Below, in pieces: positions 1 through 28,294 of a DNA stretch of 64,000 nt. This DNA comes from Planctomycetota bacterium (GTDB taxonomy: Bacteria > Planctomycetota > JAJSAM01 > JAJVHW01), in NCBI GenBank assembly GCA_024280885.1, contig JAJRPF010000008.1, positions 11,707 through 75,706 of the forward strand. Reading direction: 5' to 3'. Position numbers and translations under genes: made by a program. How positions within the stretch are numbered: position 1 is the stretch's first letter; each line of letters opens with the position of its first letter. The notes beneath the pieces were generated by a model. The model worked only from the letters and a program-made list of their open reading frames with translations, was not told the origin of the DNA and did not search any database.

Positions 1-1739
1 CCGCCGTGGCGCAGCGACCAGATGTCCTTGAGCGCCCATGGAGCCCAGCCCTTCTTCTCGATGATCTCGGCGAAGATCCAGAGATCCTTCATCCGGTTCT
101 CGAGGGGCACCATCCAGGTGAACTTGCCGTTCTCTTCGGTGTGCGAAGAGAAGAACTCAGCGAAGCCCTCGGTACTCCATAGCGGGCGTGTGAGCGAGTC
201 GAGCCAGCGCGGTGGGCGGCCGATGATCTTGCGCGTTGTATCCCACGTATAGAAGTGCACGAGTTGGTGCGTCGCTTCGTGGCATTGCACCTGGTTCGTG
301 GACTCCTGGGACTCGCCTTCGCCGTCGGCGCCCTTCTCTCCATCGCCTTCGTACGTCGTGATGAAGCGCGGCTCCTGCTTGGAGTAGTACGCGCGCGCGC
401 TGCCGGGTCCACCGACCTGGCGGATGTACTCGTAGTAGGAATCGCTGTCGGCGAACACGTTGGCCTTCAGGATGGTCGCGTAGTCCACCGAGTCTTCGGT
501 GTAGCGCTCGAAGCCGAAGATCGGCGCGATCTGCGTCATCCAGCCTTCGTACATGTTCTTGAAGAGGTCGATGTTGCGGTCGAGGATCTTCTGCGCCGTC
601 GCGACGGCCTCGGGGTCCGCATCCTCGATGACGGTCCCCTTCTCGGACTTGATCTCTACGAAGAGAAGATAGGGCCCGACGTGTGCGCTGACTGTCGGGT
701 GATCCTTGAACACCTCGAGCGTGCGGCGGTACGCGATCCACCGCGCGCGGCCGAACGCGGCGTCGGAGTTCGCGAGCTCCTGCTCGCCTGCTTCGACCTC
801 GGCGAGCAGCTCGTTAATCTGCGCGAGCTCCTCGCCCTCGGCCCACCACTTCTTCTTCCCGTTGTCACCCGCGTGCTTCTTGATCAGGCGGCCGAGTTGG
901 ACGACCGACTCGAGTTGGACGTCGTCGGCGAGTTCGCACTTGCGCAGGACGCGGCGTGCCTTGGAGGAGACCTCCTCGCGGCCGAGGACCTGGTTCGCCC
1001 ACTCGCTGGTCGGCGTGCGCGCGACGTAGAGACGCGCCAGGCGCTCGAGGCCTTCGCGTTCGTCGCGGTCGCGGAGGAACGTCGCCGTCTCTTGGACGAT
1101 CGAGTCCGACTCGGTGTTGGCGCGTGCGACCATCATGTTGACGCGGTCGGCGCGGACGTTCGCGGCGAGCATGGTCCACGCGGCCGGGTCCTTGTCCGGG
1201 TCACCGCCGCCCGCGGCGACGCCGGTTCCGTCGGCGGCCGGGGACCCGCCGATAGTCGTCGCCGGGGGGAGCTCGTCGCCGCCCTTCATCATGAAGAAGG
1301 CGATCACCGCGACGACCAGAAGACCGCCGCCAGCGAGCATCGGGACGGGTAGGGTCTTCTTGTCGGTGCGGGGGGCGTCGTCGCCGCGTGTAGCGCGCTG
1401 CCTGCCCCGGCTGCGCCCGCGCGGTTCCGGCTCGGACTCGGGCGGTGGGGCCGCGCGGCGCGCGGCGGGTTTCGCCGTGCGACCGGCGCCTGCGCGGCGT
1501 CCGGTGGATGCCTGTGCGCCGCGCGCTGCTGCGGGGGGCGTCCGTTTCGCGGCGGGCCGCGCCGGGGATGTGCCCGGGGATCTGCGCTGCGCGGGGCGTG
1601 CGGCCTGAGCGGGCTGCGCGGGCGGGGCCGTCGGCACCTCCACGACATGCCCGCACTTGCTGCAGGTGAACGTCTCATACTGTGCGACGGCGGCCAGGGG
1701 GAACTGGCCTCCGCAGCCGGGGCAACGAACCGTGGACAT
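1..1739 (-). CDS. partial CDS (first 579 codons; continues past window start): MJ0042-type zinc ribbon + one TM helix + HExxH putative metallopeptidase domain (DUF1570/peptidase-MA-like)
   Basis: Manual minus-strand translation from ATG at 1737-1739. MSTVRCPGCGGQFPLAAVAQYETFTCSKCGHVVEV is a CxxC..CxxC ribbon; LLVVAVIAFFMM is hydrophobic. YYSKQEPRF...VQCHEATHQLVHFYTW aligns with the AGYYSPGE...LAHELTHHW segment of the paralogs at 12859-15738 and 25406-28294. Absent from the ORF track because it runs off the window edge. Confidence 0.7.
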   Translation of the reverse strand, partial: MSTVRCPGCGGQFPLAAVAQYETFTCSKCGHVVEVPTAPPAQPAQAARPAQRRSPGTSPARPAAKRTPPAAARGAQASTGRRAGAGRTAKPAARRAAPPPESEPEPRGRSRGRQRATRGDDAPRTDKKTLPVPMLAGGGLLVVAVIAFFMMKGGDELPPATTIGGSPAADGTGVAAGGGDPDKDPAAWTMLAANVRADRVNMMVARANTESDSIVQETATFLRDRDEREGLERLARLYVARTPTSEWANQVLGREEVSSKARRVLRKCELADDVQLESVVQLGRLIKKHAGDNGKKKWWAEGEELAQINELLAEVEAGEQELANSDAAFGRARWIAYRRTLEVFKDHPTVSAHVGPYLLFVEIKSEKGTVIEDADPEAVATAQKILDRNIDLFKNMYEGWMTQIAPIFGFERYTEDSVDYATILKANVFADSDSYYEYIRQVGGPGSARAYYSKQEPRFITTYEGDGEKGADGEGESQESTNQVQCHEATHQLVHFYTWDTTRKIIGRPPRWLDSLTRPLWSTEGFAEFFSSHTEENGKFTWMVPLENRMKDLWIFAEIIEKKGWAPWALKDIWSLRHG

Positions 1740-1904
1740 ACGTCTTCTCCTCGCGCGGCGCTTCTTGCTCGATCCTCTTCAGACGACCCGGGCACGGTGA
1801 AGCGGAAGCCTCGCGTCCTGCTGAGCGTATCCTGCCGGGGGCCGACCGTCGTTGATCGAATCCCCCAAGCAGGGCTTGGACAAGTAGAACGTGGAGTTCC
1901 CGTC

Positions 1905-2597
1905 GTGAAGCAGCCTGAAATCACAGATCGCGGCGTCCTTTTCGATCTCGATGGCGTCCTGATCGACTCCGAGCGGCTCTACTATCGCGCCTACTCGGCG
2001 GTCCTGGCCGAGTTCGGCGTCTCCGTGACACCCGAGGTCTACGGCAAGGAGTGGATCTCCGCGGGCACCGGGCCCGAGTACGCGGTGGCGACCTTCGATC
2101 TGCCGATCACGCCGGAAGAGGTGCGTGCGCGCAAGAACCCGATCTACAGCAAGCTCCTGCGGGAAGAGGTCGCGCTCATGCCCGGGGCGAAGCAGGCGCT
2201 CGCGCGGCTGGCGGCCCGGTATCCGCTCGTACTGGCGACGAACTCGCGCGAGGGCGACGTGGACATGGTGCTGGAGCGCTTCGGCATCCGCGGGTTCTTC
2301 ACGGACGTCGTGACACGCGGTCGCTATGCGCGTCCGAAGCCGGCGCCCGATGCGTTCGTGACGGCTGCGGCTGCGATCGGATTGCCGAATGCGAGCTGCG
2401 TCGTGATCGAGGATGCCTGGAAGGGTGTGAAGGCCGCGAGCGTGGCCGGGTCACCGATTGTCGCCGTGCCGCATGAGTTCACGGCGGCGAACGATTTCAG
2501 TCTGTGCGCGAAGGTCGTTTCGTGTCTGGATGACGTGACGGCGGAACTGATCGACGAGGTGCTGGGCGACGGCTCCGTCGCTACGGTGTCCGCATGA
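1905..2597 (+). CDS. HAD-superfamily hydrolase (beta-phosphoglucomutase-like)
   Basis: GTG start is residue 87 of ORF 1647-2597, with GGAG 8 nt upstream. Motif I VLFDLDGVLIDSE. The N-terminal 86 codons of the track ORF overlap the upstream minus-strand gene and are low complexity. Confidence 0.8.
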   Translation: MKQPEITDRGVLFDLDGVLIDSERLYYRAYSAVLAEFGVSVTPEVYGKEWISAGTGPEYAVATFDLPITPEEVRARKNPIYSKLLREEVALMPGAKQALARLAARYPLVLATNSREGDVDMVLERFGIRGFFTDVVTRGRYARPKPAPDAFVTAAAAIGLPNASCVVIEDAWKGVKAASVAGSPIVAVPHEFTAANDFSLCAKVVSCLDDVTAELIDEVLGDGSVATVSA

Positions 2598-3079
2598 GCG
2601 ACCCGAGTAGCCCGCGAGACAAGATCAGTCTGCAAGCGCGCCTGGCGCCGAAGAGTGTGTGCTTCGGGTGCGGCCCCGCGAACGAGAAGGGGCTGCGGAT
2701 CGAGAGCTTCGTCGATGGCGAAGAGGTCGTCTGTGACTTCACCCCGGAGCCGCATCACCACGCGTTCCCCGGTGTTCTGAACGGCGGGATGGTCGGAACG
2801 TTGCTCGACTGTCATTGCAACTGGACGGCGGCGTATCACCTGATGGAGGCGGCGGGCGACGGGGAGTTGCCGAGCACCGTCACGGCCGAGTACACGATCA
2901 AGATGCTGCGCCCGACACCGATGGACGGCGTGTTGCATTTGCGCGCGCGCATTGTCGAGATGAAGGGCTCGCGGGCCGTCGTCGAAGGCGAGATCCACGC
3001 GGGTGGGAAGATCACGGCGACGTGTCGCGGGACGTTCGTCGCGGTGAAGACGGGCCATCCGGCGTATCACCGCTGGTAG
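2594..3079 (+). CDS. PaaI/4HBT-family hotdog thioesterase
   Basis: CFGCGPANEKGL and hotdog-fold length (161 aa). ATGA overlap with the upstream HAD gene suggests translational coupling. Confidence 0.8.
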   Translation: MSDPSSPRDKISLQARLAPKSVCFGCGPANEKGLRIESFVDGEEVVCDFTPEPHHHAFPGVLNGGMVGTLLDCHCNWTAAYHLMEAAGDGELPSTVTAEYTIKMLRPTPMDGVLHLRARIVEMKGSRAVVEGEIHAGGKITATCRGTFVAVKTGHPAYHRW

Positions 3080-3081
3080 AG

Positions 3082-3159
3082 GGTGAGAATACTGTGCCGG
3101 GCTCGTTTTTCTCAGGCGCGTCGAGGGGAGAAAAACGAGCCCGGCACGGTATTCTCACC
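3082..3159. repeat. long inverted repeat between convergent genes: 29-bp arms (one mismatch), 20-nt loop
   Basis: ggtgagaatactgtgccgggctcgttttt ... aaaaacgagcccggcacggtattctcacc. Lies exactly between the stop codons at 3079 (+) and 3172 (-). Arms are AT-richer than the surroundings. Confidence 0.6.
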
Positions 3160-3171: not shown

Positions 3172-4884
3172 TCACCGGATGTATGCGCGGATCACCTTGC
3201 CCGTTCTGTCCAGCAGCTTGACGCGCCCGTTCTGTGCCACGGCAACGCGCCCTCCGGCGACGTTGACGACGTTGCGCCATACGTTTCTCGCGTCGGGGAG
3301 TTCGACACGCGCTCCCGTTTCGATCTGCAGCAGTCCGGAGTCGGTGCGCACCCACGGGCCAAACCCGTTCGGCATCGCGAACGCTTGCTCGTCTCTGGCG
3401 AGTCTCGCCGTCGCGCGCGTTCCCACGATGGCGCCCGTCTCGCTGTTGACCGTGCTGTACGAGGCGGAGCCCTTCGCGAACTCGTAGACATGTACGAGGC
3501 CGGCGAGTTCGTCGAGGCGCCCCGTCGCCGTCCCGGTGACGGGGATGCTCAGGACGTCGTCGCCGGATTGCAGGTCGCGCAAACGGAGAGAGTCGTCGTC
3601 CGTCTGCTGGAACGCATGGTGCGGGCGCACCGAGAGCTTCGTCCCTGCTGGCACCTCCATCGATCGCCCGGCCCACTGAACGGACGTGTGGCTGCTACCG
3701 TCCTTTTCGCGGCCTGACCATGACGAGCCCCACCACGCGTCGTTCTGGCCGCGCCAGCCTGCGCGGTGTTTCTCCATGACCTGGCTCTCGGCGCTGAGCT
3801 GATCCCAGGAGCGGCTCTTCACCGACAGTCCGTCGGTCGGCTCGACCCAGCGCATCACTGCACGCTTCACGTCGTTGGCGTTGGAACCCGGCCAGCGAAA
3901 GAGATCGCACTCCCAGACGCGGAACGTCCCTGCGGCGGTCCACGCGGGTTCGGCCGGGATCACGTACGTACCGTCTACGACGTGCACTGCGCCCGACTCG
4001 ACGTTTACGATCCACACATGTGCCCGGCGTGCTCCAAACCGCTTCACATGCAAGGCGAGGTAGCGTCCGTCTGGCGACGGGTCGATCCGGTAGATATTCA
4101 CGTCCTCATCGCCGGGCACGAAGCTGGTGTGAGCTTCGACGGTCGCGATTGCCGCGGCCCCCGTCGGGACGCCGATGCAGATCGGGATCAGCAGCGCGAG
4201 GGCCCACTTCCTGACGAGCGAACGACTGTGGATGGGTCCGCGCGTGAAAGCGACGAGCGAACCGGCCAGAAGCAGCGCGCTGATGGTCGCCGGGACGGCG
4301 ACGAGGATCGTGTCGCCCGCGTCGATCCCGAGTGCCCAGAAGTCGATGCTCCACATCGCGAACGCCGGAGCTCCGACGGTGGCGACGCCCGCGACCGTTG
4401 CGGCGAATCCGCGGGGGAGGAGCGTGGAGAAGAAGAGGGCCGCGAACGCGGGGACGAGCGCGATGGGAGTTCGGGCGATCGCCTCGCCGCTTGCGCCTTG
4501 CATTGCCGTGTTGGCGGCGCCGCTGGCGCGCAGAGCGTAGAGCGCTGTTGTGACGGTCAACGCGTACACACCGAATGCGAGCGTCGCGACGACGAGGTGT
4601 GTGACCTTCGCGGCCCAGATCCGACCGAGGCCCGTCGGGAGACTTGCGAGAGCGTCCATCCGGCCGGTGGAGACATCGCTTGCCACCAGGTCAGAAGCGA
4701 TGAGCAGCCCGCAGAGCGCGGCTGCCGCCGTCCCGAACCAGCGCGCGGTCGATGCGCCGTACGTGTAGTGCCCGAAGAACTCCTCGTAGGCGATCAGGGC
4801 GAGGGGGGCGATCACGGCGAGCACGACGATGAGCGCGCGCGTGTCGCGGGCTTCTCTGCGGAGGAGGGGCAGGAAGGTCCGCAT
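3172..4884 (-). CDS. ABC-2-type permease fused to a C-terminal extracytoplasmic PD40/TolB-like beta-propeller domain
   Basis: N-terminal ~250 aa is a multi-TM region. C-terminal ~320 aa contains IYRIDPSPDGRYLALHV. Paralogous to the next gene. Confidence 0.7.
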   Translation of the reverse strand: MRTFLPLLRREARDTRALIVVLAVIAPLALIAYEEFFGHYTYGASTARWFGTAAAALCGLLIASDLVASDVSTGRMDALASLPTGLGRIWAAKVTHLVVATLAFGVYALTVTTALYALRASGAANTAMQGASGEAIARTPIALVPAFAALFFSTLLPRGFAATVAGVATVGAPAFAMWSIDFWALGIDAGDTILVAVPATISALLLAGSLVAFTRGPIHSRSLVRKWALALLIPICIGVPTGAAAIATVEAHTSFVPGDEDVNIYRIDPSPDGRYLALHVKRFGARRAHVWIVNVESGAVHVVDGTYVIPAEPAWTAAGTFRVWECDLFRWPGSNANDVKRAVMRWVEPTDGLSVKSRSWDQLSAESQVMEKHRAGWRGQNDAWWGSSWSGREKDGSSHTSVQWAGRSMEVPAGTKLSVRPHHAFQQTDDDSLRLRDLQSGDDVLSIPVTGTATGRLDELAGLVHVYEFAKGSASYSTVNSETGAIVGTRATARLARDEQAFAMPNGFGPWVRTDSGLLQIETGARVELPDARNVWRNVVNVAGGRVAVAQNGRVKLLDRTGKVIRAYIR

Positions 4885-4885
4885 C

Positions 4886-6571
4886 TCAGTTCTCCTGCTT
4901 CGGGGCGTAGACGGTGCGGGGGTTGGTGCCGTCGAGGTTCTGGATCTCGATGCGACCGTCGATCGTCAGTTGAATGACGCGGCGATCGGGGAGAACGCGG
5001 GCGCCGAGGAATGGATTGCCGGTCCACGCCTGGACGCTGGCGTACGTCGCTTGTGTGGCGAGGTCCAGGATGACGCGTTCGCCATCGTCGTCGCGAAACA
5101 CGAAGCGATCGTCAGAGCCGCCGCCGGGGAACCACGGAATACCGTGTGATCCGTCATCGACGACAGAACCCGTCTGCACATCTACGATGGTCGATCCGGT
5201 TGGGGAGTACATTCTCACGTACGCGCCGGTGGGCGAGAACGTCGCGTTGATGAACCGTTCGCGAGCGCGTTCTGGTGCACGAATGATCCGCGACGTGCCG
5301 GCGACGAGATCGTGAAGATGCACGCCCGCGGTGTCGGTGTAGAGCGCGTAGCCGGGAAGGCGCGAAAACTGGGGACTTCGGCTCACCGGCAGTGCACATT
5401 CCACGCCGGTGGCGGAGAGCGTCACGATCATGTCTGCGCCTTCGATGCGCGTCGTCGCCCAGTCAACGAACGGATAGAGGCGACCGGAGTTGACCTGTTT
5501 CGCCGACCGCGTCTCAAGGACGACGCCGGTCTCCTGGTCATAGAGGCGGTACAGGCTGGCGGTGCTTGTGTCGCCCGGCGTCCAGGCCCGGTACGCGCCG
5601 TCGTCGGCCCACGGGTTGCTCTGGTCGGCGCTCAGGTTGAGCTCTCCGAGTTGGGCGAGACTTCCGTCCTCGAGGTCGAGGATCCAGGTGCGAAGACTGG
5701 CGAACTTGTGCGGCTTCGCCGCGAGGATCACGAGGCGTCGGCCGTCGGGGGATACGTGACCGAGGGCAAGCCGCAAGCCCGGATCGTGGGGTTCGACGTC
5801 GAGTCGCTGTGAGAGTACGGCGGCCGAGATCGCTCCGGCCGGGAGAAGGACGACGATGGGGATGATCGCCGCAATGGCGAGTCGGCGCCAGACGGACGAG
5901 GTGTGCTGCGGAGCACGTACGAAGGCGAGTAGAGAACCCGCGAGAAACACGGGCGGCAAGGCGAGGAGCGCCGTTGCGACGGCCTCGTCGTCGGGCACCA
6001 ACTCCGGCGAGATCCAGTGGAGCAGCGGGATGGTGCCGCCGATCGCCGTGCACGTGACGACAGCGGCGCCGACGACGGCGAAGCCGCGTTCGAGGACGGT
6101 GGACCAGAACACGACGGTCGCGACGGCGAAGAGCGTTGCGTAGACCGCCATCGGGGGGAGTCGCGACAGTTCCACGAGGAACTGCGTGTTGGCCTCGGCG
6201 GGCGCGAGTGTCGCGTAGATGGCGGCGCAGGATGTGACGGTCCAGACCGAGAACGCCGCGCCGATCAGTAGCAGGAACGTCAGCTTCGACGCCCAGAGCG
6301 AGGACCAACGCGTCGGGAGGGCGGCGAAGGCGCGGGCGCGCTTCGTCGCGATGTCGGCGGCGATGATGTCCGCGGAGATGACCGCCAGGAAGAGGCCGAT
6401 GCAGACGGGAACGTACGTGGCGGCGGCGATGTCGCCGCGCCAGTCGAGGTAGCCGTACTCGATCGCGAGCAGACCGCCGGGGACGAGCAGCGCGCACGCG
6501 ATCGTGAGCGCGCGGACGTCGCGCCACTCCTTGTGGAGCAGTGCGAGTTGGGTCCTCAGGAAGCGTTGCAC
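4886..6571 (-). CDS. ABC-2-type permease with C-terminal PD40-like domain (paralog of 3172-4884)
   Basis: Same architecture. LGHVSPDGRRLVILAAKP motif. Only a 1-nt gap to the downstream paralog. Confidence 0.7.
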   Translation of the reverse strand: MQRFLRTQLALLHKEWRDVRALTIACALLVPGGLLAIEYGYLDWRGDIAAATYVPVCIGLFLAVISADIIAADIATKRARAFAALPTRWSSLWASKLTFLLLIGAAFSVWTVTSCAAIYATLAPAEANTQFLVELSRLPPMAVYATLFAVATVVFWSTVLERGFAVVGAAVVTCTAIGGTIPLLHWISPELVPDDEAVATALLALPPVFLAGSLLAFVRAPQHTSSVWRRLAIAAIIPIVVLLPAGAISAAVLSQRLDVEPHDPGLRLALGHVSPDGRRLVILAAKPHKFASLRTWILDLEDGSLAQLGELNLSADQSNPWADDGAYRAWTPGDTSTASLYRLYDQETGVVLETRSAKQVNSGRLYPFVDWATTRIEGADMIVTLSATGVECALPVSRSPQFSRLPGYALYTDTAGVHLHDLVAGTSRIIRAPERARERFINATFSPTGAYVRMYSPTGSTIVDVQTGSVVDDGSHGIPWFPGGGSDDRFVFRDDDGERVILDLATQATYASVQAWTGNPFLGARVLPDRRVIQLTIDGRIEIQNLDGTNPRTVYAPKQEN

Positions 6572-7533
6572 GGCGTCACCTCCTGCCCGTTCTTCGGAGT
6601 TGTCTCGGTGGCGCGGGCGGCGGCGCGGAACACGTGTTCGAGGTCGCGAGTCAGCCGATTGATGGACGCCACCTTCGCGTCCTCGCGCAGCGCCTTCTCG
6701 TAGGCGGGGTGGAAGTCGATGTAGGTGAGGACGACATCGGCGCCATCGCGTTCCGTGGCGGGGTGCCCCGGTGCCGACCAGATGGCGTTCGCGTCGTGGA
6801 GCGTGACCGCCATGCGGACGGACGAGCGTTGCAACTCCTCGAGGTCAGAGTCGAGACGGATCACGCCCTGCTCCATCAGCGCGACGCGATCGGCGACGCG
6901 CTCGACGTCGGTGATCGAGTGTGTGACGACGACGACCGTGCGACCTTCTTCGCGAAGATGTCCGAGGATCGCGGTGAGCACCTCGTGTCGCACGATCGGA
7001 TCGAGTCCGCTGAACGGCTCGTCGAGGAGCAGGAGTTTCGGGCGGTGCGCGAGCGCTGAGATCAGCGAGTGCTTCGCGCGCTGCCCCTTCGAGAGCGTCG
7101 ACACGTTCGCACGCGGATCGAGGTCGAGTTGCGCGCAGAGCTGCGTCTCCTCGTCGCGACTCCACGTCGGATAGAACGGCTCGAGGAAGCGGAACCAATC
7201 CTCGACGCGCATCCACTTCGGGAGCTCGACGCCGTCCTGGACGTAGCCGACCTTCGCGCGGATCGCTGGACCCTTGCGGGCGGGGTCGAGTCCGAGCACG
7301 CGAATGTGCCCGGCCTTCGGGACGAGCCAGCCGGTGAGGAGGCGCATGAGCGTCGTCTTGCCCTCGCCGTTGCGGCCGAGCAGCGCAGTTACACTCCCCC
7401 GCGGAACGCAGAGATCGACGCCGTTCAAGACGTTGTTCTTGCCGAAGCGATGGTGGAGTGCGTCCACCTCGATCACATAGTCGTCGTCCATGTTCACGGT
7501 GTTCGCTGTGCGTACTGTGTGTGCGGTGTTCAT
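6556..7533 (-). CDS. ABC transporter ATP-binding protein
   Basis: Walker A GRNGEGKTT, signature LSKGQRAK, Walker B LLLLDEP. AGGAGG 8 nt upstream of the ATG. 16-nt overlap with the downstream permease. Confidence 0.85.
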   Translation of the reverse strand: MNTAHTVRTANTVNMDDDYVIEVDALHHRFGKNNVLNGVDLCVPRGSVTALLGRNGEGKTTLMRLLTGWLVPKAGHIRVLGLDPARKGPAIRAKVGYVQDGVELPKWMRVEDWFRFLEPFYPTWSRDEETQLCAQLDLDPRANVSTLSKGQRAKHSLISALAHRPKLLLLDEPFSGLDPIVRHEVLTAILGHLREEGRTVVVVTHSITDVERVADRVALMEQGVIRLDSDLEELQRSSVRMAVTLHDANAIWSAPGHPATERDGADVVLTYIDFHPAYEKALREDAKVASINRLTRDLEHVFRAAARATETTPKNGQEVTPCNAS

Positions 7534-7922
7534 TGAGTCACCTCCTGCGTGGCGCCTTGCAGCAAGCGGCTCACGAGTCGTTCGATTTCTTGGGGGGAGA
7601 GGCCAGCGGCGAGCGCCTCCTCGACGGCGCGAGCGAGTCGCTCACCGAGCAACTTGCGCGTGCCGATGCGGCAGAGCTTCGGGGCGTCCGGGGCGACGAA
7701 TACGCCCGAGCCACGCCGCGTCTCGACCGTGCCGTCGCGCTCGAGTTCGCGATACGCGCGGGCCACGGTGTTGGGGTTGACGAGCGCCTGAGCGGCGAGA
7801 CCCCGTACCGACGGCAGCTTGTCACCGGCGCCGAGGCGTCCGCCGGCAACGGCAAATCGCACCTGATCGGCGATCTGTTCGCTGGGCGGCGTAGGCGCCT
7901 TGGGATCAACCTCGATCCGCAT
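7530..7922 (-). CDS. GntR-family transcriptional regulator, short YtrA-like subfamily
   Basis: 130 aa. HTH LPSVRGLAAQALVNPNTVARAYRELERDG. ATGA overlap with the ABC ATPase gives the YtrA-type regulator-ABC operon layout. Confidence 0.85.
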   Translation of the reverse strand: MRIEVDPKAPTPPSEQIADQVRFAVAGGRLGAGDKLPSVRGLAAQALVNPNTVARAYRELERDGTVETRRGSGVFVAPDAPKLCRIGTRKLLGERLARAVEEALAAGLSPQEIERLVSRLLQGATQEVTQ

Positions 7923-12857: not shown

Positions 12858-12858
12858 A

Positions 12859-19400: not shown

Positions 19401-19766
19401 CGATTGCGCGCGGATGCCCTCGACTGCGAGTGTGCGGAAGATGATGTGCGCGCCGTCCGGGGTCCACCCGACGACCTGATCCGGCGTCGCGTGAAACGTC
19501 AGACGCCGCGCGTGTCCGCCGTTCGACGGCATGACCCAGACCGCGCTCGCGCCGTCGTCACCCGACGAGAACGCGATGTGCCGCCCGTCCGGCGAGAATC
19601 GCGGGAACGTGTGCGCTGCCGACGACGACGTCAGGCGTCGCGCTTCGCCTCCCTCGGTGCCGACCTCCCAGAGGTTGCCTTCGGCGCTGAAGACGACGTG
19701 GTCGCCCCGCAGCGTCGCGTGCTGGATGTACGCCAGCCCATCGTCGGTGTTCTTCACGTCAGACAT
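16500..19766 (-). CDS. tri: tricorn protease homolog (beta-propellers + PDZ + S41 peptidase)
   Basis: RFSPDGRHIAFSS PD40 repeats, a PDZ-like segment, and the S41 core TNENAGSDGDIF. Start placed at MSDVKN (residue 17 of the track ORF); ATG at 19814 is also possible. Confidence 0.85.
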   Translation of the reverse strand: MSDVKNTDDGLAYIQHATLRGDHVVFSAEGNLWEVGTEGGEARRLTSSSAAHTFPRFSPDGRHIAFSSGDDGASAVWVMPSNGGHARRLTFHATPDQVVGWTPDGAHIIFRTLAVEGIRAQSLASVPAGGGPVTGMPLGRASTIAYHADGERVAVNRHGSDPAWWKRYQGGRAGRIWIGSRSTGEFELLPGGPRTDGCPMWIGDQLWFLSDQDGMGDLWVADADGGNRRRVTSQQEFFVRWPQADGTRIVFTAGARLFLLDTTTDEPTPREIPVTVRGHSLATQRKFVGVPKSIQSMALSADGKETLFTTRGRVVHLPNWHGAARVVAAPHGIRLREARFVGDDGRMVAIGQIDGEDRLLTIPVAGIGTDLEQATILGGVGRRIRTIEPSPDGKRIAIVDQGRGLHIATLADDGESADFALIDDKGNKWVRDLAWSPCSTWLAYSRASDWWSTRIFVWSVADGSIARVSRDEFVDSSPAWDPAGRFLALLSSRHLDPYGSALEHDFAFVAPTRAYALMLRKDEEPPFAADVVPPEKAPERVTEPIEIDFDGIAERAVPFPFPAGRYDKIGCSAASVAVLKLPLRGWRIEWEGDGPEAAPYSVETYDLIERKVDTALPSVSGWCESADGSTWLYRIGTRYRALGAAVKPAELPPTEDKERVSRTTGWMDLSRITLATDPRAEYRQILEEAWALQRDHFYDKELVQVDWDACLRRYAPLVERVRTREELADLLWEMQGELGTSHAYAMGGDLSKARRYAPGQLGCDLSADDDTNALRIARIYTGDVWAEGQHSSLAAPGKNVSVGDYLLAVDGNPVGGDGPGRCVHPGEFLLQKAGRSVALTIADDAEGTNTREVCVTPTGSEQSLRYRDWVETNRLKVDAATDGRIGYVHIPDMSLGGAIEFHRHFLWQVTQKSGFVIDNRFNGGGNISSILLAKLLRQVVGWTAARWNHAPRTYPYHAPMGPVVVLTNENAGSDGDIFSQAVKVTGLGPLIGMRTWGGVVGIDRAKDLVDGGFTTQPEYAFWFHGPGWGVENHGVEPDIVVDRTPSDAWHDRDPQLDRAIKEVMHRLDAAPTVPPDLGPRPDLRYPKP

Positions 19767-19969
19767 TCGATCCCCAGTCCGGGTTGGTGACTCTCTCTGT
19801 GAACTCGGCGTCATGCCCGCGCCGCTGGCGGGCCGCGCATCGTATCAGGGCAACCGTGCGTGTCACTCTGCGCCGTCAAGTTCCCGTCTCCGCGGTGTTC
19901 TCTCGATCCGCCGTTCCTTGGATACGCGCGCCGTCGCCGCCAGAGTCCCGGAATGCAGCGAGTTTCGGC

Positions 19970-20434: not shown

Positions 20435-21193
20435 CTACTTCTTGGCCTTCTTCGCAGGCTTCGGCTTCTCGGCCGTCTTCAGGATTTTCGGGAAGAGTTC
20501 GACCAGCTTGCGCGGGAAGCCGCTCTGGATCGGATCGTCACCGAAGTAGATATCCCACATCGCGCGGCACAGAGCGTCGCTCTCAATCGCGCCGAGTTGC
20601 TTTGCGTTCATCCGCACGGTCAGCGTCGTGCCCACCCAGGTGAAGTCGAGCTTCGTGCCCTCGGCGAGTTCATCCAACTTGAAGAGCGCCTTCAGCTTGG
20701 CGATGTCCTTCAGCGACCCTTTCACGCGATCCTTGAGCAGTTGCGCCACGCGCGGCTGCAGTGAGTCTTCGAAGGCCTCGTTGAAGTCCTCGACGTCCAC
20801 GTCGCGGGCGAGCTGCAAGCGCAGCGAGCGACCGAAACCCGGCGTGACAAGCTTCTCGCGGAAGTCGTCGTCGGCGCTCAGCTCCTTCGCCGTCTTGCCC
20901 TTCCACTTCCAGAGCGCAGCGCGGGCCTCGTCCGCGTCGACGTAGTGCCCGCAGGCGTAGACGTCCACGGCAAAGATCGACTTCTCGCGTACCGCGGTGC
21001 CGGTGATGCGGTGGCCGACCATCGTCTTCAGCACGTTGATCGTGACCGGCAGTTTGATGCCCGTCTCCGGCTCGGTGACCGTCGGACGCTTGCTCCGACT
21101 TTGGGCCGAGGCCGTGTGGCCGGCGATGGACGCGCTGCCGACAAGTATCGCGGCCGTCGTGAGAGCTGCGGCGATGAGGTTGAGGCGCGCCAT
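20435..21193 (-). CDS. secreted chalcone-isomerase-like protein
   Basis: Signal peptide MARLNLIAAALTTAAILVGSASIAGHTASA with GGAGG 7 nt upstream. GHRITGTAVREKSIFAVDVYACGHY resembles the CHI-like family pattern. Lys-rich tail. Confidence 0.55.
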   Translation of the reverse strand: MARLNLIAAALTTAAILVGSASIAGHTASAQSRSKRPTVTEPETGIKLPVTINVLKTMVGHRITGTAVREKSIFAVDVYACGHYVDADEARAALWKWKGKTAKELSADDDFREKLVTPGFGRSLRLQLARDVDVEDFNEAFEDSLQPRVAQLLKDRVKGSLKDIAKLKALFKLDELAEGTKLDFTWVGTTLTVRMNAKQLGAIESDALCRAMWDIYFGDDPIQSGFPRKLVELFPKILKTAEKPKPAKKAKK

Positions 21194-21255
21194 GGGAGAT
21201 CCTCCGGCCCGCCACTCTACATCGCTCGCCACCCTACATCACTCGTCAGTCCGGG

Positions 21256-22701
21256 TCAGCGCCGGATGGCGCCTCCGACGCGGATGCCGGTGCGCCGCCC
21301 GCCGCCGCTGATCCCACCACCCCGTATCCCACCATTGCGTATCCCACCGCGGTGAATTCCGCCCCAGCTATGGCCGCGGCCGGGGTACCACCCGCGCGGG
21401 TAGGCCGTCGAGCGATGACGGCGCCAGCGATACCAGCCGACGCCACTCCCCACGCCCCAGTACCCGTTGTAGTAGTCGTTGTAATTGTCGTAGCGCGACT
21501 CTTCCTCCGCCTCTCCGATCCGCGTGAGCAGCGAGAGCGCTTCCTCGTCCTTGTTGTCGATGGCGAGTGCTGCACGAGTCGCGGTGCGAGCCCTCGAGTA
21601 GTCGCCCTTGTCGAGATACGACGTGCCGAGCTGGATCTCGTTGTCACGCTCCTGCAGGTCGAGGCGCGCGGCGAAGTCGTCGAGGCTGTCGATCATCTCC
21701 GCATCGCCTGATCGAGTCGCCATCCGCTGCGCGGCCCCGACCTTGCGGCGCGCCGACGTCGTCTTCGAGCGGGCGAGCAGATACGACCGGATCGCCGTGG
21801 TCGGTCGGTCGGCCCGCTGGAGCCCCTTGCCGGTCAGGTTGAGCGAGTCATCGAGGAGCTTCTGAATCGGCGTCAACTGCTTCTGCCGTCGTGCGTCGAT
21901 CTTCTGTTCTGCAAGCCGCGCGTCGATCGCGGCGACGGCCGCCGCGGCGCTGTCTGCTGCTGGCATGCCCGCGAACTCTCGCTGCACGCGTCGCAAGATG
22001 CGTCGCGCCCTGTGGTCATCTCCGGAGATGGCTGCACTCTCGCCGCGGGCGAGTTCTTTGACGGAGACTTGATCCGCCAGCGCGACGAGTCGCGCTTCGG
22101 CGATCTGGAGCACGTCCGGGTCGGCCTGCGCGGCAGCGAGGTAGCTGACGCGGGCGACGTCATACATCCCCTGCGTGACCGCATACTCGGCGACATCCAT
22201 GAGCGCACCGGCGTCGCGCTCGCCCGCCCGCGCCAGCATCAGGTCCGCGACGCTATCGGGGTGCAGCGCGCCGTACTTGACGCTCGTCGTGCCTTTCATG
22301 CCCGTCTCGGTCTCAAACTGAAACTCGACGACGTTGCCGTCGTCGGAGACCACGCGCCCGGCGAGGAGCTTGCCGTTTCTGAGGCGTAACGCCGTCACGA
22401 TGCGGCGTCCGTCGTTCGCCCCCGGGCTCTGGAACGACACGGTGCGCGTGAGTGCGGTGCTCGCCGACTCGCGCCCTTCGTCCGAATACGTCGCGAGGAT
22501 GGCGCGGGCGTCATCCGGACGGAGATCGCCGTAGGCGCCCGTGCCGGCGTCGATGAGCGGCACGTTCGACTCCGTGTCCGCGACGACGCCGTCGCGAACT
22601 GTCGACTCTGCGCGCGGCGCGTCCGTCGATGTCGACGCCGTTTCCGAGGCGCACGAGGCGAGGAGCACGAGAACGAGACAGTGGGCAGGTCGAAAGCGCA
22701 T
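21256..22701 (-). CDS. lipoprotein with TPR-like helical repeats and a Tyr/Gly/Arg-rich C-terminal tail
   Basis: Start MRFRPAHCLVLVLLASCASE (lipobox) with GGAGG 6 nt upstream. C-terminus YDNYNDYYNGYWGVGSGVGWYRWRR...GGIRNGGIRGGGISGGG. Confidence 0.6.
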   Translation of the reverse strand: MRFRPAHCLVLVLLASCASETASTSTDAPRAESTVRDGVVADTESNVPLIDAGTGAYGDLRPDDARAILATYSDEGRESASTALTRTVSFQSPGANDGRRIVTALRLRNGKLLAGRVVSDDGNVVEFQFETETGMKGTTSVKYGALHPDSVADLMLARAGERDAGALMDVAEYAVTQGMYDVARVSYLAAAQADPDVLQIAEARLVALADQVSVKELARGESAAISGDDHRARRILRRVQREFAGMPAADSAAAAVAAIDARLAEQKIDARRQKQLTPIQKLLDDSLNLTGKGLQRADRPTTAIRSYLLARSKTTSARRKVGAAQRMATRSGDAEMIDSLDDFAARLDLQERDNEIQLGTSYLDKGDYSRARTATRAALAIDNKDEEALSLLTRIGEAEEESRYDNYNDYYNGYWGVGSGVGWYRWRRHRSTAYPRGWYPGRGHSWGGIHRGGIRNGGIRGGGISGGGRRTGIRVGGAIRR

Positions 22702-22783
22702 GGGAACCTCCACCGTCCAGCATAACGGGCCGTGCCGAATGCGCGCGGAAGCAGGCACCGTGGTGCGGGGCCGGCTGCGGCGA

Positions 22784-23323
22784 CTACCGCGGCGGGAATC
22801 GCGCGAGCGTCTCGCGAACGGCTTGATTGATGCGCTGATCACGCAGTTCGGCCGACGTCGAGTCGCGGAGTTCAGCCTCCGCCCAGCCTCGCCAGACGAT
22901 GTTGCCGCTCTCGGCATCGACGACATCGATGATGCACGAGCCCATCTTGTAGTTGTGGACGCTCACGTTCGCCGGCCGCCAGTTGCGGCGCCAGTGGTAG
23001 CCCGGCCCGGAGTCGTCCCACACGACGATGTCCTGCTGCTGCACGATCTGCACGCGGTAGGTCACGAGGAAATCCGCGGTCTCAGGCTCGACGCGCTGGA
23101 AACCGCCCTCGGTGAGCGCGGCCTCCGCTGCCCGGCGAATGCGCGAGTCATAGAGCGACGCTTCCACCTTGCCGACGGGCTGCGGCGCCCAGGCCCACGT
23201 GCGCAATGGCGAGAAGTTCACGGTGGTGTCGTAATCCGACCCGATGGTGGGAGCCCACGCGCATCCGGTCAGGAGCGCGAGAGCGAGTAGAGCGACGGCG
23301 AAAACGGCAGTGCGTGCATGCAT
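22784..23323 (-). CDS. DUF4136-family lipoprotein
   Basis: Lipobox ALLTGC. YKMGSCIIDVVDAESGNIVWRGWA matches the DUF4136 signature. Confidence 0.7.
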   Translation of the reverse strand: MHARTAVFAVALLALALLTGCAWAPTIGSDYDTTVNFSPLRTWAWAPQPVGKVEASLYDSRIRRAAEAALTEGGFQRVEPETADFLVTYRVQIVQQQDIVVWDDSGPGYHWRRNWRPANVSVHNYKMGSCIIDVVDAESGNIVWRGWAEAELRDSTSAELRDQRINQAVRETLARFPPR

Positions 23324-24045: not shown

Positions 24046-25383
24046 ATGACGCGGCGCCGCACTCCGCTCGCTCTCCTCTTCCTCCTTCTTCTGGTGGGCG
24101 GCGGGAGCGTGTTGATCGGAGTGCTGGACACACCGGGCGATGGCTCGGGCGACGAAGCGCGCGCAGCCGAGGGTGATGGCTCAGCTGAGCGGGAGAGCGG
24201 CTCCGAGCGGAAGACGCGGCGGTCGCGCGAGCGGACGCATGTGGCGCCGGGGGAACGCGGCGAACTCGGTGAAGGTGGCGAAGGTGGCGAGGGTGTTGCC
24301 AAAGGCGAGACGGGGCGCAGCGGGGGCGAACGCGGCGCCGCCGACGCCGAGCGCAATGGCGAACTCGGGGCGGATGGCGAGGCGTTACCCGCTCCCCCCG
24401 AGGAGCGCGAGCGCGTGACCGTCAAAGGACGCGTCGTGGACGCGGCCACCGGGAAGGGACTCTCGGGTGTGCGCATCCTGGTCGTGCGCGCGGGACGCGG
24501 TTGGGATGGCACGCGTACCGACGAGACAGGCGCTTTCTTGGGCACCGTTCCCGATCCGTCCGACCCGGCCGTCGAGACGCCGGTCGAATTGCGGATTGCG
24601 ATGAAGGGCTATCGCACACAGACCGTCCCGTGGACGAGTGGCGAGCCGGTGATCACACTGGAGGCGCGCGCGATGCCGCCTCTGCCGGGCATCGTCGAGG
24701 GACTCGCGACGGACCCCTCGGGGCACGTCGTGAGCGGTCGGCTCTTGATCACGTCGTACGACGAGATGGGCGATCACGTCGGGCAGTGGGTGCGCGCCGA
24801 CGAGAGTGGCGCGTTCCGTCTCGAGGGGCTTGCGCCCGGGCACTGGCAGATGCGCCTTGCGGGCGGCAGCGCGGCGGTGGATGTGATCGTTTCGGAGGGC
24901 GGGCGCACGTCGATGCATCTGCGCGCCGGCGCCACGGCGTGGCCCGGCACGCTCACGCGAGAACGCTTCGAGGAGTTGCACCGAGAGCTCTCGCTGCCCG
25001 GACCGACGCGTACCGATTCGCAGTCGTCCGACGTCGAGCAAGGCGGCGAGTCCGCGATGCTCGAAGAGCGCCGCCGTGCGGCGCGCATGCAGGCCCGTCA
25101 GCAGGCGATACAGAACCTGGAATCGCGCTGGCGCGGCGTGGCGCCGGAGCGTGACGTCATCGTCTCGGGTCTTCCGCAACGCGACTTCGCGTACGTGCGT
25201 GCCGCGACCACGAATGGCCCGAACGAGAGCTGGCGCGTGACGGTCCGCGACGGTGTCGCGCGTCTGCGTCTGACGCACGAACGCTGGCGACTCATCCTGG
25301 AGATCCCGGGCGAAGAGGAGCTGTCGTTGACCCTCATCGTCAACGCCGGCGAAGGCGCGCAGACAGTGTCGTGGACGCGCTGA
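24046..25383 (+). CDS. signal-anchored protein with a Gly/Glu-rich low-complexity linker and two carboxypeptidase-regulatory-like beta-sandwich domains
   Basis: MTRRRTPLALLFLLLLVGGGSVLIGVL TM segment. VKGRVVDAATGKGLSGVRILVV and GRLLITSYDEMGDHVGQWVRADESGAFRLEGLAPGHW motifs. Confidence 0.5.
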   Translation: MTRRRTPLALLFLLLLVGGGSVLIGVLDTPGDGSGDEARAAEGDGSAERESGSERKTRRSRERTHVAPGERGELGEGGEGGEGVAKGETGRSGGERGAADAERNGELGADGEALPAPPEERERVTVKGRVVDAATGKGLSGVRILVVRAGRGWDGTRTDETGAFLGTVPDPSDPAVETPVELRIAMKGYRTQTVPWTSGEPVITLEARAMPPLPGIVEGLATDPSGHVVSGRLLITSYDEMGDHVGQWVRADESGAFRLEGLAPGHWQMRLAGGSAAVDVIVSEGGRTSMHLRAGATAWPGTLTRERFEELHRELSLPGPTRTDSQSSDVEQGGESAMLEERRRAARMQARQQAIQNLESRWRGVAPERDVIVSGLPQRDFAYVRAATTNGPNESWRVTVRDGVARLRLTHERWRLILEIPGEEELSLTLIVNAGEGAQTVSWTR

Positions 25384-25405
25384 CCGCGACTCTCCGCGGC
25401 GGCTC

Positions 25406-28294
25406 TCAGCGGACGGTCTGCAGGAACTTCGCGAACGCGGTTCCCATCTCTCCGGCCGACGTGAAGCCGAGTCGCTTCCAGCCCGCCTTCGTCGAGCGCC
25501 CTGTGTAGAAGTCGCGGATGTAGCGGATCGTGAGAACGCGAGACTTGTCGCCGCGCATCCGGAGGAGCCAGAAGGCGAGGGCGCCGGACTGCTCGTAGAA
25601 GATGCTGCGCGGACTCATTTTGAAGGTCTGGAGCGAACGTCGCAACGTGACCTCGCACTTCGGCAGGTCCGAGAGTCGCGCGAATGTCCCCTGCGTCATA
25701 TCGACCAGTGTCTTGAGCGGGAACGCGTTGCGGTCCTTCGTCATCTGCGCGGTGGAGTCGATGGACCCGACCGTCTGGTCGTTGAACGTGAGGCCGCGTG
25801 TGTCCGCGTCCACCATCTGGTCCTCGATGAAGCGAGCGAGCCCTTCGACGATCCAGAACCCGGGCGCCTCGGCGCCGCGGCGAGCCGGTACACCGAAACT
25901 CGGTATCCAGCGCGAGTCGACGTAGTGGTGCGTCAACTCGTGGGCGAGCACCTTGAACAGCCCGCGGCCGAGCGGCTCCCGGTTCGGGCCCCCGTCCGGC
26001 ACGTGGAAGCGCGAGATGTTCTCGTACGGCGCGTAGTAGCCCGCACTCCATTTCGGCGCCGTGCCACCGACGGTCTTCTCGATCAGGTACTCCTTGCGAT
26101 TGCGATGGATGCGTACGTCGAGCCGGTCCTTGTCGGTCCAGCCCCGCGCCGGGCCGTCGCCGAGGATCTGCATCAGGCCCTCGACAGCGGCTTCGCCGGA
26201 GCGCAGACATGGTCCGATGATGGACGCGTCTTGACTGCGTGAGAAGAGCAGCAGACGCGGGGTTCGGAACCCGATCGTCCCACGAACACGAGTCCACACG
26301 CCCTCACAGCGCTTCCACGCGGGGTCGTCCGCACCGAGGAATTGCGCGTCGGCGGCGAGGACATACGGCGCCCATTGCAGCCAGCGTTGCGGCGCGTCGG
26401 GGAACCCACGATCGGGGAACTCCTTCGGGATTGTCGTCGCCGCCAACTCCGCGATGGCGGTCGAGTTGGCGTCCAGCTTGGTGGCCAGGGAGAGCAGGCC
26501 TGCGGCCGCAGTCTTCAGTTCACGACGGATGCACCACTTTGCGGCGGCGAGGATCTCCGTGACCATTGCCGCTTCCGCCTCGCCTTGTCGCCGTTCGAGC
26601 GCCGGTAGTCGGAGGTTGGCGTTCGGGTGCATGCGCTTGCCGGTGAGCTGCGCATTCAGTTCCTTCGCGCGACGCTCGCTCATGCCCCATGCGCGCGCCT
26701 CCTCGAGAACACCGCCAGCGGCGTTCGGGATCTCCATCCGCACGGCGCGTTCGAAGAGCTGCTCGTATCCACGCACCGCGGTGGCGCGCGCGGCGCGGCG
26801 CAGCACGTCGAAGACATCACGCTGCGTCGCGGCGTGGAGGACCTCGCCTCCCGAACGGGCGACGAGGACGTCGGCGCCCGCGACGGTGCGCGGTGCAGCC
26901 TTCGTGGTGACGATGAAGTCTTCACCCTTCTGCGTCACGGTCCCCGCGACCTCCGAGCCATCACGCAGGAGTACGCCGTCCATGGCGCGTGGGAGCGGCG
27001 GCACTGCGACTTCGGCTGCTGCCGTCGCGGTGGCCGCATCGGCGTCTGCACCGCGCGCGGCGTCCGGACTCGCCAGGCAGACCAACTCGCCCTTCTTCGT
27101 CCGAACAACGACCAATCCGTCGCCGGAGGGGATGGCCGGCAGTTTGATGTCCTCGCCGAAATCATGGACCCAGAGGACGCGCTTCGACGTGAGGTCAACA
27201 GCCCAGTTGCCGAAGTAGGCCACGTTTTGCGCAATCGACGGCCGACCGCGCCAAGCACCCTTGGGCTGGTCCTTCGCCTCGACCACCACGAAGTAGCGGC
27301 CGTCGACGTTGATCTTGAGCAGGTCCCACTTCTCGTTGAACGTGTACGCCTGACCACCAAAGATGGCCGGCGCGACGCGCGCATCCGCGAGGCCGCCCTC
27401 GCCGCGATCGGGAACGAGTGCGCCGTTGAGCGCTCCCTTCGCGCCTGCGAACCCGTCCTTGCACCAGAAGAACCAACCCGAGCCGTCCGCGCCGTCCATG
27501 CGCGCGACCACACTGTTGGAGAGCTTGCTCGACGCGCCGCGCTCGACCGGTGTGACTGGGCGGTTGTCGCCCGGCGCTGCCGTGATCGTCGGTGCTCGTT
27601 TGTGGAGCTCTTCGACACTGGTCAGGCGGGGGCGCAGCCAATCTCCTTGGAAGCTGAAGTGGTTACCAATCGACGCACTGGCGAGGAGGGCGGACTGGGG
27701 CCTGGGATACGTCGTCGCGATCAATCCGCTGCCCCCGACGGTGGCCGTGAGTTCCTTGCCGCGCCGCAGTCCGTAGACCGAGAAATCGGAGGACGTCGGG
27801 ACCAGCAGCAGGTCGCCGCAGATCCCCGGATGTCCGGAGAAGTCGCCCGCCTTCTTCCACATGGCCTTGAAGGACGTCCCCTTGAAGAGGAATGCGCGCA
27901 CGGTCTCGCGTTCCGTCATCACGACGGTCCCCTGCCACGCGAGCAGGTTGACGCGCCTGTCGGTGCTCTTCAAGACGACTTTGCGCGCGCGTTGCTCGCC
28001 CGTTGCGGCGTCGTATGCGAGCAGGACGTTGCGTCCCTGCGTGTCGCGCGAGACGAGGAAGATCGTGCCGCCCCAGACCACGGGCTCGCACACAATGGCG
28101 CCCTCGGGCTTGATGCGCCAGGCTTCGATCGGCTGGCGGCGGATCGGCTCGCAGGTCACGCGAGAGGTGCGGTCGGCGCCGCCGCACTTCATGTTCCAAT
28201 GCCGCGCGCCGACGCCGTCGTCGGCTCCGCGTGCGATCGGTCCCAGGCACAGCAGCGCGGCCGTCGCGCAGAGCACACTCAGTATCGTTCGCAT
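25406..28294 (-). CDS. secreted PQQ-like beta-propeller + HExxH metallopeptidase-like (DUF1570-like) protein, paralog of 12859-15738
   Basis: Start MRTILSVLCATAALLCLGPIARGADD (residue 58 of the track ORF) with AGGAGG 8 nt upstream. LAHELTHHYVDSRW. The C-terminal ~200 aa align with the paralog. Confidence 0.8.
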   Translation of the reverse strand: MRTILSVLCATAALLCLGPIARGADDGVGARHWNMKCGGADRTSRVTCEPIRRQPIEAWRIKPEGAIVCEPVVWGGTIFLVSRDTQGRNVLLAYDAATGEQRARKVVLKSTDRRVNLLAWQGTVVMTERETVRAFLFKGTSFKAMWKKAGDFSGHPGICGDLLLVPTSSDFSVYGLRRGKELTATVGGSGLIATTYPRPQSALLASASIGNHFSFQGDWLRPRLTSVEELHKRAPTITAAPGDNRPVTPVERGASSKLSNSVVARMDGADGSGWFFWCKDGFAGAKGALNGALVPDRGEGGLADARVAPAIFGGQAYTFNEKWDLLKINVDGRYFVVVEAKDQPKGAWRGRPSIAQNVAYFGNWAVDLTSKRVLWVHDFGEDIKLPAIPSGDGLVVVRTKKGELVCLASPDAARGADADAATATAAAEVAVPPLPRAMDGVLLRDGSEVAGTVTQKGEDFIVTTKAAPRTVAGADVLVARSGGEVLHAATQRDVFDVLRRAARATAVRGYEQLFERAVRMEIPNAAGGVLEEARAWGMSERRAKELNAQLTGKRMHPNANLRLPALERRQGEAEAAMVTEILAAAKWCIRRELKTAAAGLLSLATKLDANSTAIAELAATTIPKEFPDRGFPDAPQRWLQWAPYVLAADAQFLGADDPAWKRCEGVWTRVRGTIGFRTPRLLLFSRSQDASIIGPCLRSGEAAVEGLMQILGDGPARGWTDKDRLDVRIHRNRKEYLIEKTVGGTAPKWSAGYYAPYENISRFHVPDGGPNREPLGRGLFKVLAHELTHHYVDSRWIPSFGVPARRGAEAPGFWIVEGLARFIEDQMVDADTRGLTFNDQTVGSIDSTAQMTKDRNAFPLKTLVDMTQGTFARLSDLPKCEVTLRRSLQTFKMSPRSIFYEQSGALAFWLLRMRGDKSRVLTIRYIRDFYTGRSTKAGWKRLGFTSAGEMGTAFAKFLQTVR

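Follow-up and report, generated by a model that had tools for sequence, protein, structure and literature searches.

What four hypothetical proteins with an HExxH motif could be doing outside the cytoplasm of a planctomycete, and whether all four could be doing the same, is the question raised by a 64,000 nt stretch of DNA of Planctomycetota bacterium (assembly GCA_024280885.1, contig JAJRPF010000008.1, positions 11,707–75,706 of the forward strand), which has a G+C content of 67% and is here called the window. The original prediction, made by a model from the sequence alone, had described four minus-strand genes with the motifs HEATH, HEYAH, HELTH and HELTH as one family of secreted, DUF1570 or peptidase-MA-like proteins with swapped N-terminal modules, and according to open reading frames (ORFs) and translation the four genes lie where it had placed them:

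2–1739, minus strand: G1, 579 aa present, cut by the left window edge; putative type-II membrane-anchored gluzincin
8123–10990, minus strand: G2, 955 aa; predicted secreted multi-domain protein, with a signal peptide and a Cys-rich module, then a degenerate gluzincin domain, and C-terminal to it HEAT repeats and a VWA domain
12859–15738, minus strand: G3, 959 aa; predicted secreted protein in which a BamB-like propeller, a small beta domain and a helical linker precede the intact gluzincin domain
25406–28294, minus strand: G4, 962 aa; full-length paralogue of G3 (propeller and gluzincin domain)

The gene calls were backed by a frame filter based on third-codon-position G+C (GC3) and by the ORF listing. 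Each protein contains a single HExxH, i.e. HEATH in G1, HEYAH in G2, and HELTH in both G3 and G4, with coordinates re-checked by translation. About 110 C-terminal residues of G1 lie beyond the window edge, as judged from relatives of ca. 690 aa. The core of the finding, a paralogous set of exported gluzincin-domain proteins in the window, is real. The explanation that we consider best overall, and rather likely to be correct, is that the four exported proteins are built on one divergent, M9-like gluzincin domain, which would be active in G1, G3 and G4 and degenerate in G2.

Pairwise BLASTP of the four proteins returned one significant pair, G3 and G4, which aligned over their full length (32% identity, 984 columns, E 1.8e-131) and are thus paralogues as whole genes, N-terminal module included; neither G1 nor G2 gave a BLASTP alignment to any other of the four. 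Family alignments were built from database relatives (13 for the C-terminal region of G3/G4, 13 for the N-terminal half of G2, and 42 for G1). In profile comparison with hhalign, the G1 family matched the G3/G4 family at 97.9% (E 4.5e-13, 225 columns), with (R/A)(A/G)YYS..E..RF, HExTH and W..EGFA.F among the matched columns, which indicates a homologous domain common to G1, G3 and G4. The region they have in common is ca. 225–290 aa long and includes (A/R)(G/A)YYS...RF, HExTH and EGxA. The claim of an HExxH region shared by all four genes accordingly stood for G1, G3 and G4 and fell for G2, the HEYAH of which is not the counterpart of the other HExxH motifs; the claim of a different N-terminal module in each gene held for G1 and G2 but not for G3 and G4, which carry the same propeller. 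A search of all six-frame ORFs of the window with the three family hidden Markov models (HMMs) turned up no additional paralogue, and G2 went undetected by the G3/G4 and G1 models.

The last 399 aa of G3 were modelled with AlphaFold2 from a 40-sequence alignment, with a mean predicted local distance difference test score (pLDDT) of 91.1 and a predicted template modelling score (pTM) of 0.89. The order of elements in the model is two strands, a long backing helix (130–151), further strands, the HELTH helix (215–234), and a helix (249–263) with E253, which is E813 of full-length G3. In this predicted structure the thermolysin-like beta-sheet, backing helix, central helix and glutamate helix of the gluzincin fold (clan MA(E)) are all recognizable. 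A thermolysin-like HExxH+E fold, for which structure prediction had been proposed as a check, was thus returned by AlphaFold2 at the level of a model. In G1, G3 and G4, HExxH is on the central helix and a glutamate is on the next helix, with the following residues at the predicted zinc sites:

2–542, minus strand: G1 gluzincin domain, truncated, from hhalign to the G3/G4 family and motif conservation; HEATH at nt 267–281 (aa 487–491)
168–170, minus strand: G1 putative ligand Glu524 of EGFAEF; zinc-site residues H487/E488/H491 and E524
12862–13743, minus strand: G3 gluzincin domain, with A816 included among the site residues
13378–13392, minus strand: G3 HELTH (H783, E784, H787)
13300–13302, minus strand: G3 putative ligand E813
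13051–13053, minus strand: G3 Y896
25928–25942, minus strand: G4 HELTH (H785/E786/H789), coordinates checked
25844–25846, minus strand: G4 putative ligand E817, coordinates checked

Conservation at the site was followed in 152 proteins of the G3/G4 type, comprising G3, G4 and the 150 best of the profile matches. Residues H783, H787, E813, G814, A816 and Y896 were invariant in this set and the catalytic E784 was kept in all except one (151/152), a pattern that would be expected of working zinc peptidases. Among relatives of G1, QCHEATHQ...EGFAEF was kept in most and lost in a few, and on these sequence patterns G1, G3 and G4 look catalytically intact. In the G1-type relatives P0037, P0051 and P0055, the HExxH and/or the ligand Glu have been lost (CREATLQ, CEVAAFQ...HGFAAF and CCEAARQ...VGFGEF), which indicates that degenerate copies arise repeatedly in the superfamily.

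On the basis of the models, the domain would be a divergent gluzincin (clan MA) of an uncurated family, with the peptidase domains of M9 collagenases as its nearest solved relatives. In M9, the Glu ligand is 28–30 residues past HExxH and is followed by an Ala three residues later; further hallmarks are a second Glu one turn further on, a double-Gly motif, and the PKD and CBD domains for collagen recruitment (PMC3711286). The window proteins resemble M9 (ColG, ColH, ColT and the Grimontia/Vibrio enzymes; PF01752) in where HExxH (central helix) and the Glu ligand (the helix after it) are placed, and in the Ala at position +3 from the ligand Glu of G1, G3 and G4, which is also invariant in the 152 relatives. 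The second Glu has a counterpart in the E-G-x-A-E-F of G1, and both groups appear from their sequences to be secreted multi-domain enzymes. The spacing from HExxH to Glu, 26 residues in G3, 28 in G4 and 33 in G1, is near that of M9, but not identical. Unlike in M9, the double-Gly before the edge strand is absent; G3 and G4 have (A/S)-G-Y-Y-S instead, in which the second Gly alone is invariant, and G1 has R-A-Y-Y-S. Sequence identity to M9 is only 12–15%, and the accessory modules are different, being a BamB-like propeller in G3/G4, a zinc ribbon and a transmembrane (TM) helix in G1, and HEAT repeats and VWA in G2. The structural score to M1 aminopeptidases, including the tricorn-interacting factor F3, was far below that to M9, and the window proteins are without the GxMEN exopeptidase motif, the N-terminal beta domain and the C-terminal ARM domain of M1. 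In a profile search of PDB sequences, weak matches to aminopeptidase N (E ca. 0.006) fell exactly over the HExxH...E stretch.

Whether the domain might nevertheless belong to an existing curated family (DUF1570, Peptidase_MA_2 or M9) the models of which miss it, so that only the annotation would be new, was considered against Pfam and NCBIfam. DUF1570 (PF07607) and Peptidase_MA_2 (PF13485), both uncharacterised gluzincin families, have the same HExxH ... EGxA pattern, and many planctomycete proteins fall under DUF1570, which would accordingly show the same bias towards the phylum. Searches of Pfam and NCBIfam at E ≤ 0.1 returned no peptidase family for G1–G4, save a faint M61 match in G4, and at this level neither DUF1570 nor Peptidase_MA_2 of Pfam matched any of the four, nor did M9 (PF01752). 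Scanning the family members against Pfam gave scattered sub-threshold matches only, to M61, M9, BSP, DUF1570, M1 and Peptidase_MA_2. For DUF1570 the best E-values in relatives were 5.2e-4 (G3 type) and 0.012 (G1 type), and for Peptidase_MA_2 a single one of the 14 G3-type relatives matched (E 0.064), in both cases without reaching the gathering threshold; the best M9 values among relatives, E 3.3e-5 to 3.9e-5, were likewise taken as below the cut-off. The relatives' best DUF1570 and Peptidase_MA_2 E-values, 5e-4 to 0.012, are thus no better than those of M61, BSP or M9, and membership in one of the curated families is improbable. The DUF1570/peptidase-MA-like label of the original prediction could not be upheld at family level, although its clan-level idea of a zinc metallopeptidase-like protein of clan MA was right.

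The remaining part of the question concerns G2, in which the single HExxH lies elsewhere in the domain:

9566–10477, minus strand: G2 domain of predicted gluzincin fold (aa 172–475), with degenerate canonical site
10016–10030, minus strand: G2 H321-L-M-A-H325, at the canonical HExxH position
9950–9952, minus strand: G2 V347, in place of the ligand Glu
10343–10357, minus strand: G2 HEYAH (aa 212–216), placed by topology and profile mapping in an insertion where the backing helix starts
10541–10837, minus strand: G2 Cys-rich module with 14 Cys, at least 8 of which are invariant in the family, and an invariant CFLKRHAxSW

With hhalign, the G2 family matched the G3/G4 family alone at 27% (E 6.8e-4) and the G1 family alone not at all. 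A merged profile of the G1 and G3/G4 families matched the G2 family at 84% (E 7.6e-6), and at 93.9% when DSSP secondary-structure scoring from two models was added, with 218–251 columns aligned across both comparisons. By this mapping, H783, E784 and H787 of G3 correspond to H321, L322 and H325 of G2, and E813 of G3 to V347, and the same LG.(S/T)PE.F..W helix closes both domains. The HEYAH falls within an insertion specific to G2 (a beta hairpin and HEY) just ahead of the backing helix. The order of elements in the G2 model is in accord with this, in that HEYAH is at the very start of helix 211–232, which would be the backing helix, and helices 310–329 and 343–355 take the positions of the central and glutamate helices. 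An insignificant match of HExxH on HExxH between G2 and the others, obtained with re-built larger alignments (18 columns, 3.9%), was rejected as motif matching, as the merged-profile alignment and topology disagree with it. The G2 family profile returned nothing useful against PDB sequences. The architecture of G2 was conserved in the relatives P0014, P0016 and P0023–25; its Cys-rich module, counted as 12-Cys in the original prediction and found to hold 14, was in part of low pLDDT in the model.

For residue counts, extra G2-type sequences were gathered from metagenomes and genomes. The catalytic Glu was absent from the canonical position in all 29 family members that could be counted (0/29, with RHxxxH there), and the ligand Glu was present in four of 27. 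The canonical Glu residues of the gluzincin zinc site are accordingly lost in G2, and this loss, together with the fusion to HEAT repeats and VWA, makes G2 most likely a non-catalytic binding or scaffold protein. It is like other pseudo-peptidases in keeping the fold (as modelled), in belonging to a family without the general-base Glu and mostly without the third ligand, and in its fusion to HEAT and VWA. It differs from them in having a new invariant HExxH elsewhere and in retaining both old His residues, and may therefore not be inert.

This difference is where a second reading of G2 comes in, according to which G2-type proteins would be active enzymes with a relocated centre, the invariant HExxH binding the metal and HEAT and VWA recruiting the substrate. 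The upstream HExxH is kept in all 31 of the 31 family members, down to 27% identity, and is followed by a near-invariant R-A-E; 27 of 29 members retain the two histidines of the old site, the His one turn past the lost Glu is mostly kept, and the HEYAH helix was modelled at a pLDDT of ca. 90. Ligands completing such a centre could be the Arg-His of the Cys-rich module, E223, or the retained H321/H325/H351, but no third ligand could be identified, and both topology and hhalign put HEYAH outside the cleft-forming helices. We know of no gluzincin in which the backing helix is used for catalysis, nor of a precedent in a gluzincin for the relocated HExxH arrangement. A relocated centre is unlikely on this balance, yet if true, it would be a new active site inside a thermolysin-like fold, wired to HEAT/VWA recruitment domains. 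As judged from residue conservation and the models, the ancestral site of G2 is probably that of a pseudo-peptidase, and the protein has gained a new conserved motif.

The modules outside the peptidase-like domain set the protein types apart:

1638–1730, minus strand: G1 CxxC...CxxC zinc ribbon (aa 4–34), predicted cytoplasmic; motif present in the family consensus
1290–1358, minus strand: G1 single TM helix (about aa 128–150), from a hydropathy scan
14449–15651, minus strand: G3 BamB/PQQ-like beta-propeller (about aa 30–430), from the family profile against BamB of the PDB
8831–9433, minus strand: G2 HEAT repeats (Pfam HEAT_2, 63 bits, cut-off 27.7)
8156–8710, minus strand: G2 VWA domain (Pfam VWA_3, 35.7 bits, cut-off 27)

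The zinc ribbon and TM helix of G1 are as had been described, with sub-threshold Pfam matches only for the ribbon (Zn_Ribbon_TF, E 8e-4; Zn_ribbon_4 in 3/22 relatives), and a low-complexity linker is also present. The PQQ/BamB-like propellers proposed for G3 and G4 are backed by profile similarity, as the full-length G3/G4 family profile (42 sequences) matched PDB chains of BamB, an 8-bladed propeller, with E 1.6e-8 to 2.8e-8; single-sequence matches to Pfam PQQ_2 reached 22.6–22.7 bits, under the cut-off of 27.6. HEAT repeats and VWA were both correctly named in G2, being above the Pfam thresholds and C-terminal to the gluzincin-type domain, and the metal ion-dependent adhesion site (MIDAS) residues DxSxS...T...D of the VWA domain are present in G2 and relatives as DTSRS, GETN and TDG. 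The N-termini of G2, G3 and G4 are hydrophobic, consistent with signal peptides. To our knowledge, the combination of a collagenase-like domain with a BamB-type propeller has not been described, although no literature search was aimed at this pairing.

For zinc binding, peptidase activity, substrate class, and localisation we infer the following course. G3 and G4 would be exported by a signal peptide, followed by an 8-bladed BamB-like propeller and then by a small beta domain that a helical linker connects to the peptidase domain. In G1, a single TM helix would separate the zinc ribbon, in the cytoplasm, from the peptidase domain outside. The Zn2+ ligands of all three proteins would be both HExxH histidines, on the central helix, and the E-G-x-A glutamate one helix further on, with the HExxH glutamate activating the water. 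The invariant Ala three residues past the ligand Glu may form a hydrophobic floor as in M9, and the oxyanion is likely to be stabilised by the invariant Tyr. The propeller of G3/G4, or the membrane tether of G1, would position or select polypeptide substrates outside the cytoplasm, and G2 would act as a non-catalytic binding or scaffold protein with HEAT repeats and a MIDAS-containing VWA domain.

Several points weigh against this explanation. The peptidase domain reaches the threshold of no curated family model, and its family assignment depends on predicted structures and profile comparison. The PKD and CBD domains of M9 are absent from the window proteins, with no Pfam matches to them, nor was there evidence of an activator domain of the M9 type. 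The link of G2 to the other three is the weaker one: it is profile-profile comparison and predicted fold that tie it to them, the 84–94% was reached with the merged profile only and the other comparisons gave 27% and a motif-only match, the Foldseek E-values for G2 are not significant, and its residue mapping combines hhalign with the order of secondary-structure elements. The strict conservation of its HExxH suggests that G2 might not be inert. The signal peptides are assignments made by eye and from hydropathy.

Relatives of the G3/G4 type were searched for with the family profile (HMMER) over 1.84 billion cluster representatives. At E ≤ 1e-3 this gave 1,302 clusters (50% identity), of which 403 remained when the limit was set to E ≤ 1e-30. 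Most members are ca. 950 aa long, with a minority of ca. 520 aa without the propeller. The G1 type had 42 relatives (about 570–700 aa) and the G2 type ca. 30. A genome scan with one genome per species gave 78 G3-type loci in 68 assemblies, of which 72 loci bore a Planctomycetota title of phylum, class, order or family rank and six were unclassified metagenome-assembled genomes. Among the 72 is the cultured Saltatorellus ferox Poly30, the orthologue of which lies within 4,995,968–5,017,011 of NZ_CP036434.1. The named relatives of the G3/G4 family are all Planctomycetota. Two or three G3-type copies, often in tandem, were present in 15 of the 68 assemblies, so paralogy is common but modest. No functional name was attached to the relatives, as cluster names read only ‘hypothetical’ or ‘HEAT repeat’, and literature searches on DUF1570 with Planctomycetes and on gluzincins with beta-propellers found nothing relevant, M9 in Planctomycetota lying outside their coverage.

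Planctomycetota are major degraders of complex organic matter, and much of their exported proteome is unannotated. By the present assignment, three families of hypothetical proteins (the G1, G2 and G3/G4 types) would gain a collagenase-like zinc-peptidase fold, together with a prediction of active versus degenerate members that could be tested in cultured S. ferox Poly30. The G2 family would be a clean case of repurposing of a protease fold, with the canonical site lost and a new invariant HExxH elsewhere, and this relocated, invariant motif is the most interesting point. Current understanding is not overturned by these results, which are mainly an annotation and a lead for enzymology.

It may further be asked whether the four proteins work together with their neighbours. 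Most of the genes around G2 and G3 are transcribed in one direction:

16500–19814, minus strand: tricorn-type protease, 1104 aa, with Peptidase_S41, Tricorn_C1, PDZ_Tricorn and a PD40 propeller
15783–16484, minus strand: membrane protein with 5 TM helices, no Pfam match; adjoins the G3 orthologue in the closest relatives
12042–12857, minus strand: S-adenosylmethionine (SAM) methyltransferase, Pfam Methyltransf_25; starts 1 nt past the G3 stop
11070–12029, minus strand: lipoprotein with lipobox VVSAC, no Pfam match; adjoins the G3 orthologue in the closest relatives
7530–7922, minus strand: YtrA-like GntR regulator
6556–7533, minus strand: ABC ATPase
4886–6571 and 3172–4884, minus strand: two paralogous permeases with 6–7 TM helices, each with a C-terminal soluble domain of ca. 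300 aa

The order of this co-directional minus-strand array is the tricorn-type S41 protease, the 5-TM protein, G3, the methyltransferase, the lipoprotein, G2, the GntR regulator, the ABC ATPase and the two permeases, ending at the second permease (3172); a plus-strand thioesterase (2594–3079) divides it from the minus-strand G1. The run of G3, methyltransferase, lipoprotein and G2 on one strand was as proposed, all co-directional with gaps of 1, 12 and 79 nt, and the tricorn protease of the neighbourhood is real. The propeller label given to the permeases was not confirmed, as their C-terminal domains had no match in Pfam or among PDB sequences.

The original prediction had read this neighbourhood as a substrate-capture protease system, in which the four HExxH proteins, methyltransferase, lipoprotein, tricorn protease and ABC permeases would make up one system for substrate capture and degradation. 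The length of the co-directional array and the short gaps between its genes, tricorn to second permease, speak for such a unit, as do gene orders that recur in other genomes. One relative (L004/L006, 60–64% identity) has G3-like, G2-like, GntR, ABC, permease, thioesterase and G1-like genes and then a second G1 paralogue. In L005, the closest relative (66% identity), the order is 5-TM protein, G3, lipoprotein, G2. These are close relatives, however (60–66% identity in G3), so their synteny weighs little, and even there the methyltransferase is absent from L005 and L006 and the tricorn gene from L005. Comparison of genomic context, which had been suggested as a check, showed the arrangement to dissolve beyond the two closest genomes. 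Clustering of the neighbours of the 78 G3-type loci revealed no conserved partner gene, the commonest neighbour, an ABC ATPase, occurring at 11 of them, and none of 21 G2-type metagenomic loci, most of them on short contigs, had a G3- or G1-type neighbour. The GntR-ABC-permease genes are an ordinary self-contained module. The tricorn homologue has no signal peptide, and thus is probably in another compartment than the exported G2, G3 and G4. With the cluster kept only in the two closest genomes, a single system of this kind is hardly likely. A relay of the tricorn/F3 kind was also considered and rejected, given the missing signal peptide and an adjacency to G3 that is kept in L006 and lost in L005.

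At locus L001, an unrelated methyltransferase is convergent to a short G3-type gene. In L004 (ERZ795105 NODE_174), a second G1-type paralogue of 664 aa, 40% identical to G1, is located at 12172–14166 directly downstream of the G1 orthologue, which suggests that the family may continue past the left edge of the window.

The interval from the tricorn gene to G4 encodes (20435–23323, minus strand, and 24046–25383, plus strand) a chalcone-isomerase-like protein, a TPR protein whose tail is rich in Gly and Arg, a lipoprotein of the DUF4136 type and a protein with a CarboxypepD_reg domain; the chalcone-isomerase-like, TPR and DUF4136 proteins and a CarboxypepD_reg protein are syntenic in L005. Further along are a large sensor adenylate/guanylate cyclase with MASE10, HAMP, GAF, PAS and Guanylate_cyc domains (41836–44517, plus strand) and an F-type ATP synthase operon (55490–62623, plus strand; a, b, delta, alpha, gamma, beta, epsilon). 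In the latter, ATP-synt_ab matched the 581-aa alpha subunit in two stretches, suggesting an insertion of ca. 75 aa in the nucleotide-binding domain.

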